Source: Candidatus Bipolaricaulia bacterium
Lineage (GTDB): Bacteria; Bipolaricaulota; Bipolaricaulia; JBHIAT01
Assembly (NCBI GenBank): GCA_046758705.1
Contig: JBHIAT010000012.1
Span: 1-38,238, forward strand
Reading direction: 5' to 3'
Length of the DNA stretch: 38,238 bases
A model generated the notes under the pieces. That model searched no databases and was not told where the DNA came from. It was given only the letters and a program-made list of their open reading frames with translations. The translations under genes and the position numbers were made by a program. Of this stretch, positions 1,376 through 34,127 are shown piece by piece; position 1 is the stretch's first letter, and each line of letters opens with the position of its first letter.

Positions 1376-2190
1376 CCATCGCCTCTCATCAACCCTCTCA
1401 TCCGCGCGAAGCTCCGCCGGATCTTCTCTCCATCCTCATCATCGATGATCTCAAGGGTGAGAAATCGGTCGTAACCTCGCAACCGCTCGATGAATCCCTC
1501 GAGGTTCAGGAGACCCGTTCCCAATTCCTGATGGCTTCCCCGATCCGGACTGAAGTCGTGGAGATGGATATTGATCACCCGGTCGAGCACCCCGTCGAGG
1601 ACGGCCTCGGGGTCCTCCCCGTTCGCCATCGAGTGACCGACATCGAAGGTCCCCCATAGGCGTGGGTCGAAGGCAAGCGATTCGCGAAGCTCGGCGATCG
1701 CCGTGGGATAGGTGCGGTTCGGTTCCGGCGATGCGGGCAGGTTCTCGATCGCCAGGATCTGGCCGTGTGCTTCGGCGACCGAGAGCAGTTCCTCGAGATT
1801 CTCCCGGAAGATCGCCTGATAGTCGATCTCCTTGCGCAGACTCTCCAGGTAGAAGACGCCGCCGTGAACTGTCATCAGCTCCGATTTCAGCTCCGTCCCG
1901 AGCTCCAAGGTCCGGTTGAGTTCATCCAGGGCCACCTGTCGGTGTTTGTGATGAGGGGTGACCAGCGACTTCCCCCAGAACGGCCCGTGCATCGTGATCC
2001 GAACCCCCTTTACCAGGTTCCGGATTCGTCTCAGTTGGCGTTCGGAAAGCGTCTCATTCCCCTCGGGATATTCGAGCCACAGCTCGACATGATCGGGGTC
2101 AAACGCTTGGACGAACTTCGCCTCCTCCTCCCAGCGGTTCTCGTCCGTCCCCACGACCTTCAGGATCAGCCCAAGGCTGGGTTGGGTCAT
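1372..2190 (-). CDS. Sugar phosphate isomerase/epimerase family (xylose isomerase-like/AP endonuclease 2 TIM barrel)
   Basis: Metal-binding pattern AIENLP...FDVGH...IHLHD...HQELGTG...LEI; purine-rich RBS (GGAGAG) upstream. Confidence 0.85.
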   Translation of the reverse strand: MTQPSLGLILKVVGTDENRWEEEAKFVQAFDPDHVELWLEYPEGNETLSERQLRRIRNLVKGVRITMHGPFWGKSLVTPHHKHRQVALDELNRTLELGTELKSELMTVHGGVFYLESLRKEIDYQAIFRENLEELLSVAEAHGQILAIENLPASPEPNRTYPTAIAELRESLAFDPRLWGTFDVGHSMANGEDPEAVLDGVLDRVINIHLHDFSPDRGSHQELGTGLLNLEGFIERLRGYDRFLTLEIIDDEDGEKIRRSFARMRGLMRGDG

Positions 2191-30907: not shown

Positions 30908-32061
30908 TTACGGAGCAATCACCACTTTCATGGCATGGTCGATGTCGAAAGCCTGTTGCATCGCCGCCTCCGCCTCCTCAATCCCGAACTCATGCGTGAC
31001 GAACTCATCGAACGGGAAGGTGTTCTTGAACTTCTCTATGAGCTTCAGGCTGGGGAGGTAAGCGGTCGGCGGATGGTTGGTCAGCCCGATCAACCGGATT
31101 CCTCGGGCGGCCAGATGTCGGTGGGGATTGATCATCACCTCCCCCACGTCGGCGAACACGCCGGCGACGATGTACATGCCACCTCGACGGGCCATCTCCA
31201 GCCCCTCTAGGATCGCTTCGGCGACTCCGGCGCACTCGACGACCAGATCCGCGCCCCGTCCGTCGGTGAGCTCCCGGACCCGTTCGATCCGCTCCTCAGC
31301 GGTCATCTCCCGGATGTTAATGGTATAATCGGCTCCGAACCGTTTGGCCATCTCCAGCCGGAACGTCGAGCCATCGATCGCGATGATGTCCCCGGCACCC
31401 AGGATCCGGCTCTTGACCACATGGAGGAGTCCCATTGGCCCGACCCCCTGGACGACCACCGTCGCTCCGGTGCCGAACCCCTCCCCATCCATTGAATAGA
31501 ACTGTTTGGCCTTATCCAGGTTGAAGGTAACCGCCATCAACTCGGTCATCACAGCGACTCTGGGTTCGATCCCTTTCGGCACTTTGTAGACGAACGCATC
31601 GGGGCGGACGTAGATATACTCCGCCCAGCCGCCGAACAGATGTGGGGGTTCAGCACAGGTGAACGCGTTTCCGTAGCCCTTGATATTCTCACAGAGCGGA
31701 AGCCGGCGGTGTGTTTGCAGTAGTAGCACTCTCCGCACAGGATGTCAGGGCACATCACCACCCGGTCGTCGATGTCGAGTTCCTTGCCGTAGAATTCAAG
31801 CTCTGTTCGAGCCCGGCTGCCGATCTCGGCGACCGTGCCGACGATTTCATGGCCGGGGATGATCGGAAACGGGGTGGTCGACTCGGCACCCGTCCCCCCG
31901 TACTGGGTCGTCTCACCCCGGTAGGTATGTTTGTCAGTGCCGCAGATGCCACACATCTCAGTGGCGATCAGCAGGCTATGCTCATCGATTTGGGGGTAGG
32001 GAAACTCCTGGGTCTCGATCTGATCGGGCTTCACCATCACGGCTGCTTTGACGGTCCTCAC
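30908..32061 (-). pseudogene. Zn-dependent alcohol/polyol dehydrogenase (MDR family) split by a 1-nt frameshift near 31698
   Basis: Frame A holds CGICGTDKH, GHEIVG, CGECYYC; frame B continues PLCENIKGYG...GVGPMG...KVVIAP. The span is 1154 nt and one extra base restores a 384-aa ORF. Could be a sequencing error. Confidence 0.85.
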
Positions 32062-32203
32062 GTCGATGATTCCTCCCTGTTAAGAACAGGTTCTCAGTGG
32101 CATCAGAGATCACAAGAGAGGAAGATGGCCGGGCATCTCTCACCCTCTCGCTTTTCCTGTTCTCTTTCTCCTCGCTGCACTTATGTGTACGTTCCTGCAA
32201 AAC

Positions 32204-32232
32204 TTGACACCATTATACATCTGTGCTACACT
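32204..32232 (+). promoter_or_regulatory. Strong sigma70 promoter with no sense CDS downstream (drives putative sRNA)
   Basis: TTGACA (32204-32209)-N17-TACACT (32227-32232) with extended -10 TG at 32224-32225. Confidence 0.75.
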
Positions 32233-32238
32233 TTAAAT

Positions 32239-32305
32239 GTCTTTAGAAAGGACTAAAGCTTACGGGTCTCCGTAAGCGAATGGGCCCGGCTACGGCTGGG
32301 CCTTT
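32239..32305 (+). ncRNA. Putative three-hairpin small RNA convergent with and overlapping the NYN gene 3' end
   Basis: Starts about 7 nt after the -10 box. Hairpins: GUCUUU-AGA-AAGGAC (or CUUUAG/CUAAAG), GCUUACGG-GUCU-CCGUAAGC, and GGCCCGGC-UACG-GCUGGGCC followed by UUU. The C(UACG)G tetraloop and the G-U pair work only on the + strand. Confidence 0.65.
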
Positions 32306-32868
32306 GCAATTTTCTCGATATTTGCGCGCAACTGGTGCAAATAGATGACCTGATTCGCCGCCTTTCTTAACTGCTGTGAGATCCGATCTCTATGGCTTAC
32401 CACCACTGTCTTCTTGAAGCGCCCCTTGAGGTACTTCACCAGCTTGACAAAGTCACCATCGCCACTGCATAGAATGAAAGTGTCATACTCTGAGATGGTA
32501 TCTAAAGCATCAATGGTTAATTCCACATCGAAGTTGCACTTGTGCTTGAACCGGGCGGTTGTCGCATCGTAGACCCGACTGATGGGTTTGGTGCGCACGA
32601 TGATCCCAAACGATTTGAGGAGCTTGAAGTAGGCCTCCTTCTGTGATTTCGCCCTTCTGAAGTCGTTGATGGTTGCACCAGGGTTCCTATCGAAGAAGAA
32701 TGCCTTGGTGATTTGACCTTCGTAATAAAAGGCCTTTTGGAGATCGTATTGTTGCCGGAAATAATTGATGAACTTTTGAAAATCAATTTCCCAGTTCTCG
32801 TTGCGCATCGCATAATGATAATTGGCAGCATCGATGAAGAGACTGACTTTCTCTTTAGGATTCTTCAT
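32290..32868 (-). CDS. NYN domain (LabA/DUF88, PIN-like) putative ribonuclease
   Basis: FIDAAN, KCNFDVELTID, ILCSGDGDFVKLVKYLK: acidic active-site residues intact; visibly more AT-rich than its neighbours. Confidence 0.92.
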   Translation of the reverse strand: MKNPKEKVSLFIDAANYHYAMRNENWEIDFQKFINYFRQQYDLQKAFYYEGQITKAFFFDRNPGATINDFRRAKSQKEAYFKLLKSFGIIVRTKPISRVYDATTARFKHKCNFDVELTIDALDTISEYDTFILCSGDGDFVKLVKYLKGRFKKTVVVSHRDRISQQLRKAANQVIYLHQLRANIEKIAKAQP

Positions 32869-32942
32869 CTTTGCTTTCTACCACTCCTCCACCACCCGAA
32901 TCTCCGCCGCCTATCCCCCAGAGCGGCGCCAACTTGGCTATA

Positions 32943-34127
32943 TCAGTACTTTCCGTACTCCTGGAGCGTCTCCCACATGGCCATAATGTTCTCGGGAGGG
33001 ACGTCGGCCTGGATGTTGTGGATGGTGGTGAACACGAACCCGCCCCCGGGTGCCATGTCGTCGATGCGCCGCTTCACATCGTCGCGCACCTGTTGGGGCG
33101 TCCCCTTCGGCAGCGTCGTCATCGACTCCACCCCGGCGCCCCAGAAGACGAGGTCGTCCCCGAACGCCGGCTTGACTCTGGAGCTGTCCATGCCGACGGC
33201 ATCGACTTGAACCGGATTGAGTATATCGACTCCGATCTCGATCAGATCCGGGATCATATCGAAGATCGCGCCATCGGTGTGCAAGAACAGGTAGGCGTTG
33301 GGCGCCCGCTCCTTGATGAACGAGAACAGCCGTTTGTGGCGCGGTTTGATCATATCCCGGTACATCTGGGGAGAGATCATCGGTCGGTCCTGCCAGCCGA
33401 GATCGTCTTGCTCGATCACCACATCGACGACGTCACCGAGCTCCCCCAACGCCATATCCCAGAAGTCCATACGCAGGTCGGTATGTTTGTCCAGCAAATA
33501 GCCGGCCAGCTTTGGGTTACCGGCCATGTCGATGTAAAAGTCGGTGTAGTTCCTGATCCAGAGTGACCTCTCGAACAGCCCGGCACCGAGCTGCAGTATG
33601 GTGGCATAGCCCGCCTCCTGCATCTGCTCGAAGATCTCGCGGTACCCTTCGATTCGGACCGGGTCCCGGAAGTTAGGCCAGATGCGGTTGTCGATATCCT
33701 CTTGGGTCAGCTCACCGGAGAGCGGATGGTGTTCCATATCGTAGTACAGGTTGTTGCTGGCCAACTTCCATTTGATCCCCCACTCGTCGGTGAACACCTT
33801 GCGTCCTTTCTCTTCGTGGACCTCCAGCCTCCAATCGGAGGTCGAGTCGGGTCCATGATTGCCGCGGGCGCGCAGCCCTCGGGTGTCGACCTTGAACTGC
33901 TGGAGCACCTGTTCATCGACCTGGGCCAGCTGGGGGGCGAAGTCGAAGACCGGGATGTCGTCGATCTCGATGTCTAGATGGTCGAGGAGACGGCGATAGG
34001 CGAACAGGCTGATGCCGGTGATCGACGTGCTCCCCAGGTCGTAGGGGATGCGATCCGGTTCTTTGTGATTCAAGGCGGTCAGCAGACGCTCTCGTGGTGT
34101 CATCTCTGATGTCTCTGATGTGCTCAC
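32943..34127 (-). CDS. Uroporphyrinogen decarboxylase/MtaA-CmuA family protein (probable corrinoid-dependent methyltransferase-like)
   Basis: MTPRERLLTALNHKEPDRIP, TDEWG, DDLGWQDRPMISP, FLHTDG, ILNPVQ, TTIHNIQADVPPENI. GTG 34127 overlaps the pfkB stop (alternative ATG 34103). Confidence 0.88.
   Translation of the reverse strand: MSTSETSEMTPRERLLTALNHKEPDRIPYDLGSTSITGISLFAYRRLLDHLDIEIDDIPVFDFAPQLAQVDEQVLQQFKVDTRGLRARGNHGPDSTSDWRLEVHEEKGRKVFTDEWGIKWKLASNNLYYDMEHHPLSGELTQEDIDNRIWPNFRDPVRIEGYREIFEQMQEAGYATILQLGAGLFERSLWIRNYTDFYIDMAGNPKLAGYLLDKHTDLRMDFWDMALGELGDVVDVVIEQDDLGWQDRPMISPQMYRDMIKPRHKRLFSFIKERAPNAYLFLHTDGAIFDMIPDLIEIGVDILNPVQVDAVGMDSSRVKPAFGDDLVFWGAGVESMTTLPKGTPQQVRDDVKRRIDDMAPGGGFVFTTIHNIQADVPPENIMAMWETLQEYGKY

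Follow-up and report, generated by a model that had tools for sequence, protein, structure and literature searches.

The systems closest to the locus described here are bacterial toxin–antitoxin (TA) modules in which the antitoxin is an RNA. In type III TA, tandem RNA repeats lie upstream of the toxin gene and are co-transcribed with it through a leaky terminator; RNA antitoxins acting on proteins are, to our knowledge, so far known for the one toxin superfamily of these systems. The Bacillus type I systems txpA/RatA and bsrG/SR4 employ antitoxin RNAs that overlap their toxin genes at the 3' end, and in the AbiF/Abi_2-type systems a defence protein, of a family different from NYN, is reportedly controlled by an adjacent non-coding RNA (bioRxiv 10.1101/2025.04.15.648962). 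Here we describe a small RNA gene convergent to the gene of a NYN/LabA-family ribonuclease (RNase) in a 38,238-nt stretch of DNA from Candidatus Bipolaricaulia bacterium (contig JBHIAT010000012.1 of assembly GCA_046758705.1), the whole of which is called the window below. A sequence-only reading of this stretch had proposed the pair as a candidate RNase/RNA-antitoxin module. One part of that proposal, an RNA gene paired with NYN, stands; the architecture that defines type III TA is absent from the locus.

The linkage of the RNA to NYN genes is the central observation. A protein search recovered 234 relatives of the NYN protein in the protein collection; several of them end in AQP or AQS like the window protein, most end earlier, and the common endings suggested conserved DNA around the stop codon. 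Homologue DNA was taken from relatives of the window's genome, from species genomes and from metagenomes. Twelve copies served to build a covariance model, which was applied to 413,060 bases from 100 sources; besides the window, 47 further loci matched, every one antisense to NYN, and eight weak echoes of these elements appeared on the opposite strand. The sequence-only reading had suggested looking behind homologous genes for a conserved antisense promoter and covarying hairpins, and the outcome is clearly positive, both helices covarying and the RNA being found in 46 of 50 testable loci. These are the NYN loci at least 38% identical to the window protein, 53 in number, less three that leave their contig inside the gene. 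The homologues (38–62% identity) come from several phyla and from metagenomes. In the 46 RNA-bearing loci the RNA always lies on the strand opposite to NYN, its 3' end being offset by −19 to +56 nt from the end of the coding sequence (CDS), and 43 of the matches have E ≤ 0.01, the other three (L114, L133 and L124) falling at 0.014–0.17. Four loci lack the RNA: L128 has a truncated NYN, and in L146, L167 and L168 the alignment covers the C-terminal half only. No RNA was found in the distant NYN loci and families covered by the covariance-model search. Among 151 sampled genomes of the window's own phylum the RNA model matched in six: the match adjoins a NYN gene in G000, G018 and G138; in G002 it is cut by the contig end, the remaining sequence matching the NYN 3' end of L132; in G106 it lies at a contig end and aligns identically to the G002 match; and the sixth is G007, whose RNA has a different partner gene and is described below. 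A weak model match in G016 proved to be an ordinary terminator.

The near-consensus plus-strand promoter of the sequence-only reading is borne out by its conservation. Taken within the window, the site ranks first among four promoter-like sites in 10 kb, a count no higher than chance (shuffles gave 4.6), and this chance-level count is one of the observations that favour an account in which there is no functional RNA, the promoter being fortuitous and the hairpins serving as terminators of convergent units or as recombination sites at the DNA level. Another is that P2, the last hairpin, has with its U tail the shape of an ordinary terminator; weak model matches such as that in G016, too, are plain terminators. 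We give this account almost no credence, since both the position and the sequence of the promoter are kept: within 60 nt upstream, 40 of 42 distinct copies have a site that agrees with the consensus at 9 or more of 12 positions, and 36 have one that agrees at 10 or more, compared with 150 and 26, respectively, among 2000 random segments of 60 nt taken from these loci. The distance from the end of the −10 box to the model start is 2–8 nt in most copies and greater in a minority; in the window it is 12 nt. In L104 (about 1886–1990, minus strand) an added GC-rich hairpin stands between promoter and RNA, placing the promoter further upstream than in other copies.

The covariation of the RNA argues in the same direction. 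A structure alignment fitted to the covariance model comprises 41 distinct RNA rows (some loci are near-duplicates), and in it 98.5% of 659 pair cells are standard pairs, with double-sided changes in 15 of 17 pairs (155 cells); none of 500 shuffles reaches any of five measures, and sliding the 3' partners by 1–3 columns leaves 31–53% paired. All eight pairs of the first conserved hairpin, P1, change on both sides somewhere in the alignment. Its cells comprise 251 Watson–Crick pairs, 29 G–U and one A–C, those of P2 317 Watson–Crick pairs, 52 G–U and no A–C, so that 81 G–U cells stand against a single A–C over both helices. This imbalance identifies the RNA strand, plus in the window, as the folded and selected strand, and because the opposite imbalance would be expected of a hairpin working on the NYN strand, P1 cannot be explained simply as the NYN terminator. 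The sequence-only reading had argued from the tetraloop and a G–U pair of the window copy that the element as such is not simply that terminator. MAFFT misplaces P1, the length of which varies, and recovers P2 only; P1 is therefore judged on the model-fitted alignments. On a plain MAFFT alignment of 38 distinct copies, RNAalifold recovers P2 with no broken pairs and double changes in seven of nine pairs.

Further features of the RNA are difficult to reconcile with the absence of a function. P1 covaries though no U tract follows it on the RNA strand, both helices tolerate G–U on that strand only, no upstream gene exists on the RNA strand for P2 to terminate, and neither an attC-like long imperfect hairpin nor terminal repeats appear in the alignments or the repeat scan. 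By hand count, 27 of the 41 rows have UACG as the loop of P2; the other four-base loops are mostly stable tetraloops (GAAA, GCAA, UUCG), and the remainder consists of four rows with other four-base loops and four with loops of three or five bases. Since this loop is kept even where the NYN open reading frame (ORF) stops well before P2, it is not conserved for coding reasons. The unpaired segments, a 5' motif and a linker, are conserved in sequence across phyla. A small peptide encoded in the RNA was rejected by inspection: the AUG of the motif is absent in several variant groups, and the frames vary in length and stop.

Read in the orientation of the RNA, the homologues share one order of parts: a TTGACA-like −35 box, a spacer of 16–18 nt, a TAnAnT −10 box, a few nucleotides, the motif AAAUGACUAAAG, P1 (6–8 bp and variable in sequence), the linker CGAAUG or CGAAAUA, P2 (9 bp, its loop mostly C(UACG)G) and the U-rich tail. 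The conserved RNA thus has two hairpins and not three. Three had been read from the window, and three are indeed predicted there: the fold of 32236–32312 on the plus strand reaches −36.1 kcal/mol (z −4.86, with none of 200 shuffles as good), compared with −27.4 kcal/mol (z −3.45) for the minus strand of the same segment. P1 and P2 are the conserved ones, and the first, at about 32239–32257, is specific to the lineage; in it, extra 5' bases would pair with the conserved ACUAAAG motif and sequester it. The TAG stop codon of NYN (32290–32292) falls at the loop of the last hairpin, as had been noted from the letters alone. The RNA and the NYN gene occur once each in the 3.7-Mb genome assembly, in which the match of model R2 at 32245–32310 is the only one. 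The features of the locus are collected in Table 1.

Table 1. Parts of the NYN–RNA unit, with positions in the window
Feature	Position	Strand	Details
Sigma-70-type promoter	32204..32232	+	TTGACA-17-TACACT with TG extension (TG-n-TACACT); 10/12 consensus positions
Lineage-specific 5' hairpin	32239..32257	+	Predicted fold; not in aligned homologues
Small RNA matched by covariance models	32245..32310	+	R1 74.7 bits, E 2.6e-14; R2 71.7 bits
Single-stranded A-rich 5' motif	32250..32258	+	GGACUAAAG in window; consensus AAAUGACUAAAG; AAA invariant (alignments A2, A6)
Hairpin P1	32258..32277	+	8 bp, loop GUCU
Linker	32278..32281	+	GAAU; consensus CGAAUG, AA nearly invariant
Hairpin P2 and U-rich tail	32282..32315 (stem-loop 32282-32303)	+	9-bp stem with C(UACG)G loop; serves as the RNA's intrinsic terminator
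NYN/LabA-family ribonuclease gene	32290..32868	-	192 aa; Pfam PF01936, AlphaFold model, fold matches
Whole NYN + RNA unit	32078..32942		865 bp; present or absent as a block; contains NYN, RNA, promoter and short flanks

The assignment of the protein is firm. PF01936 is its sole Pfam match (residues 7–177, 92.3 bits against a cut-off of 24.2, E 5e-26), and the AlphaFold model (mean confidence, pLDDT, 93.7) finds its best fold match in the LabA-like structure 2qip (E 1.7e-11; template-modelling score, TM, 0.81 on the target), with the MARF1 NYN domains 5yaa and 6fdl among the other matches. The aspartates D13, D114, D137 and D139, together with N16, are invariant in 38 homologues; from comparison with MARF1 we take these residues to be the catalytic site, and the earlier statement that the catalytic aspartates are kept agrees with this. 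The PADLOC profile ‘NYN’ matches the C-terminal part only (E 1.7e-13). The PADLOC profile HEC-09 matches the whole length, weakly and with no curated cut-off (E 1e-7, 29.8 bits); on seven homologues it gives E values of 3e-7 to 2e-6 in four and no match in three. One preprint reports a bacterial NYN protein to be a robust, sequence-nonspecific, Mn-dependent nuclease of single-stranded RNA (bioRxiv 10.1101/2024.04.08.588522), and an unrestrained copy would therefore plausibly be harmful to the cell.

The RNA and the NYN gene come and go together. Contigs from four runs of one study, sampling the likely source habitat, were compared over window positions 31000–34000. One contig of 661 nt from run X4, with flanks about 97% identical, joins 32077 to 32943 with 31 unrelated letters in place of 865 bases, so a close relative lacks exactly the segment 32078–32942, and there only a few tens of bases separate the stop codon of the upstream gene from the ribosome-binding site of the downstream dehydrogenase. 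The ORF list of the window offers no further plausible ORF inside the unit. The NYN gene is AT-richer than its surroundings, as had been remarked, its GC content of 0.43–0.49 contrasting with about 0.58–0.64 in both flanks. A repeat scan of the unit found no terminal direct or inverted repeats and no target duplications at its borders, and tandem repeats are absent from window positions 31900–33100. The suggestion of a compact mobile unit gains support from the empty site in the related strain and from the very different genomic contexts of the homologues.

These contexts were surveyed by comparing 53 neighbouring ORFs from 37 loci with Pfam and some of them with PADLOC. Defence neighbours occur in 8 of the 37 loci. 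The unit lies between HmaC(+DUF7680) and HmaB in two Hma loci (L101 and L117), between HsdM and HsdS (L113) or before HsdS (L108) in type I restriction–modification (R-M) loci, before BrxA in a BREX locus (L018), after HEPN_AbiV (L119) or another HEPN gene (L115), and before the abortive infection (Abi) gene AbiJ_NTD4 (L110). Integrase or insertion sequence (IS) genes stand beside the unit in five more loci, tyrosine recombinases adjoining it in L019, L096 and L097 and IS genes in L014 and L133. The remaining loci have ordinary neighbours, such as prfB-like, glmS-like, rpiA, rnc and mgsA genes. Where NYN has an upstream neighbour (30 loci), that gene is co-directional in 25; for downstream neighbours the figure is 22 of 34. 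This indicates that the unit tends to insert in line with host operons, its RNA pointing against them. NYN and the RNA thus form a transferable unit of about 0.8 kb that favours defence loci. The anti-phage or addiction role proposed from the sequence fits this embedding in Hma, type I R-M and BREX systems, and fits the PADLOC NYN and HEC-09 matches as well.

Other carriers were looked for. A phage origin was rejected, as a NYN search of viral contigs gave only six distant or partial relatives and phage records gave no match. A pattern scan of viral contigs picked out L187 (13661–13705), where, at an ORF end, GAAUG and GACUAAAG precede a terminator that has a CUACGG loop; with neither a P1 nor a match to model R2, it is probably a chance or terminator match. 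Among plasmids, matches came solely from the distant alphaproteobacterial branch of NYN (about 33% identity). This branch (30–35% identity; L021–L093 and plasmid matches H1–H15) is without the RNA, and within a few tens of bases after its NYN gene stands a conserved co-directional gene, the product of which starts with a CPLCPRL...PDWFN-type motif.

What could such an RNA do for the RNase next to it? Three broken NYN genes are informative here. L094 (2501–3076) and L116 (2501–3075), which belong to one lineage, have a common in-frame stop at the tyrosine of the conserved FYYEG, L116 being frameshifted in addition, and L118 (455–1027) has a separate, independent in-frame stop. The RNAs beside these copies are intact, at 58–78 bits, and a broken NYN next to an intact RNA is the decay pattern expected of a toxin. 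It also counts against the RNA as a positive partner of NYN, be it cofactor, scaffold, specificity element or natural substrate, in a ribonucleoprotein that needs the RNA in order to act: a decayed protein with an intact RNA in three loci is easier to understand if the protein is harmful and the RNA protective. Such a partnership seems doubtful to us, with only a small probability. The obligate linkage and the conserved single-stranded motifs would suit any specific RNA–protein partnership, and HEC-09 cloned with its native promoter region reportedly gave no defence (bioRxiv 10.1101/2024.01.29.577857). The near constancy of the unpaired segments, however, means that the RNA cannot be a programmable guide.

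We propose instead that the pair constitutes an RNA-antidote/RNase module, TA- or Abi-like, in which direct binding of the RNA to the protein is the main neutralizing step; on the sequence evidence we consider this an even proposition. An RNA of about 60 nt would be made convergently from its own strong constitutive promoter, its terminator hairpin abutting or overlapping the NYN stop codon, and in its abundance would restrain a potentially harmful NYN RNase. Were the RNA to be lost or depleted, because the module had gone or a phage had shut off host transcription, the RNase would be released. The neutralizing step we favour is that the NYN protein directly recognizes the RNA, following a type III-like logic, with the 5' single-stranded motif and the linker, presented by P1 and P2, acting as a pseudo-substrate or inhibitor; antisense pairing with the 3' end of the NYN mRNA may contribute. 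NYN and RNA would be inherited and would move together, landing in operons and often inside defence systems. Direct binding is favoured because conservation across phyla extends to the unpaired 5' motif and linker, because P1 is constrained on the RNA strand though it is not the terminator of the RNA, and because the overlap with the CDS is small and variable (−19 to +56 nt).

These observations also bear on the alternative that the RNA acts in cis as a type I-like antisense. On that account the NYN mRNA reads into the RNA gene, and either the RNA pairs with the 3' end of the mRNA or the polymerases collide; cleavage of the RNase III type or destabilization of the 3' end would leave little NYN made, and no contact between RNA and protein would be needed. 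The layout suits it well, the two genes being convergent and abutting or overlapping at the stop codon in all 46 RNA-bearing loci. The promoter of the RNA is strong and conserved, the absence of a U-tract after the P2 complement on the NYN strand makes read-through of NYN into the RNA gene plausible, and the Bacillus pairs txpA/RatA and bsrG/SR4 offer a precedent. We nevertheless regard it as somewhat unlikely. The overlap with the CDS spans only that small and variable range, complementarity alone cannot explain the conserved unpaired motifs or a P1 constrained on the RNA strand only, and conservation of unpaired segments across phyla is not required by a pure cis-antisense action. How far the complementarity between the RNA and the NYN mRNA extends would depend on where that mRNA ends. 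Between the 5' motif and the translation start of NYN the pairing is weak, at −6.7 kcal/mol for cognate and −5.7 for non-cognate combinations; the slight cognate advantage (one-sided p 0.013, 18 loci) could be explained by common base composition. NYN, moreover, is a soluble enzyme of 190 aa and not a small membrane peptide.

Several observations weigh against an RNA antidote that neutralizes by direct binding. The strictly convergent, abutting layout is needed by cis-antisense action and not by a trans-acting protein binder. HEC-09 protected against none of the phages tried, as its source reports (bioRxiv 10.1101/2024.01.29.577857), and many copies of the unit adjoin housekeeping genes. The pair counts given above come from a model-fitted alignment and are biased towards the structure, albeit with large margins. 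Finally, a good RNA homologue in G007 faces a DUF1828/PDC-M24B gene and not NYN.

The G007 copy (L183/L188; L183 1501–1561, plus strand) has the promoter, P1, linker and P2 and is convergent to the DUF1828 gene. The protein of that gene matches PADLOC PDC-M24B at E 5e-56, and the gene stands beside an HKD+Snf2 gene. Homologues of DUF1828/PDC-M24B occur in 9 of 184 genomes, the RNA being found with the G007 copy only; the eight other homologues, one of them 74% identical, have no RNA. For this reason we read the G007 arrangement as the replacement of a gene in a defence island with the RNA left behind. Alternatively, the RNA could serve other partners.

In the window, the unit stands between two genes labelled by eye from their translations, one uroporphyrinogen-decarboxylase-like and the other dehydrogenase-like. 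Downstream, the zinc-dehydrogenase-like gene (30908–32061, minus strand) is broken up into ORFs 30908..31738 and 31549..32061, which overlap. In runs X2 and X3, contigs carry one additional G behind 31697 within this split gene, and the frameshift is therefore probably an assembly or strain variant and not a real pseudogene. A second contig from run X4 retains the RNA region with 70 nt deleted (32077–32146) and one C added behind 32244; as the deletion falls in the spacer that separates the start of the dehydrogenase gene from the promoter of the RNA, that spacer is dispensable. Around the NYN start codon, a 14-nt inverted repeat (86% complementary) at 32827–32840 and 32862–32875 could, when present on the mRNA, occlude the start.

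As to known families, Rfam 15 gives no match on the element, none at E ≤ 10 in the window and none at E ≤ 1 in eight homologous loci, in line with the earlier remark that the RNA was not recognized as a named family. No description of an RNA partner for NYN, DUF88 or LabA-like proteins was found in the literature searched, a scope that leaves most subscription journals outside. Judged by Rfam 15 and this literature, the RNA represents a new family. Being compact, structured and covarying, it can be curated as such and used to annotate modules in metagenomes. We tentatively put forward a broader possibility, namely that the module represents a new TA/Abi class in which inhibition of a NYN-fold RNase comes from direct binding of a single hairpin RNA, about 60 nt long and independently transcribed, and which has spread horizontally across phyla as a second line of defence nested in Hma, BREX and type I R-M systems. 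If so, it would provide the first RNA antitoxin for a PIN-like nuclease, belonging to an RNA family that Rfam lacks; the RNA-antitoxin principle would extend to a second nuclease fold, unrelated to the first and with a dedicated RNA partner of its own, and the many orphan NYN/LabA genes of defence islands would acquire a testable mode of control. The inactivity of HEC-09 as a protein-only system may find its explanation here too.

Comparison with the described NYN proteins places the module near, and apart from, each of them. With LabA/DUF88 proteins (2qip; the MARF1 NYN domain) it has the fold and the acidic active-site residues in common, whereas the known members are without a described RNA partner gene, and the alphaproteobacterial branch is without the RNA. 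HEC-09 of PADLOC is likewise a stand-alone NYN/MARF1-like nuclease embedded in Hma loci, an arrangement found in the homologues L101 and L117 and not in the window copy. HEC-09 was reported as a NYN candidate embedded in Hma systems, and the main text of its source contains neither ‘non-coding’ nor ‘ncRNA’ and describes no RNA partner (bioRxiv 10.1101/2024.01.29.577857). The match of HEC-09 to the present subfamily is weak (E about 1e-7), and it may therefore represent a different branch; the window protein would be a distant relative of it.

Among TA systems, type III modules (ToxIN, CptIN, TenpIN) resemble the NYN module in combining an endoribonuclease with a small structured non-coding RNA in compact, mobile, defence-associated units, and an Abi-type logic is plausible. 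The toxin folds differ, NYN being NYN/PIN-like and not of the ToxN/CptN/TenpN (AbiQ-like) kind, and so do the RNA genes: in the NYN module the RNA is single, has its own promoter and lies convergent and downstream, without tandem repeats. With the type I systems txpA/RatA and bsrG/SR4 the module shares a convergent small RNA with its own promoter, the 3' end of which meets the 3' end of the toxin gene. Its protein, in contrast, is a 192-aa soluble alpha/beta nuclease and not a small hydrophobic peptide, the overlap between RNA and NYN CDS is minimal, and the RNA is conserved in sequence and structure across phyla. Judged by these analogies, the module would act most like an RNA-antitoxin system, yet it belongs to neither type III nor type I.

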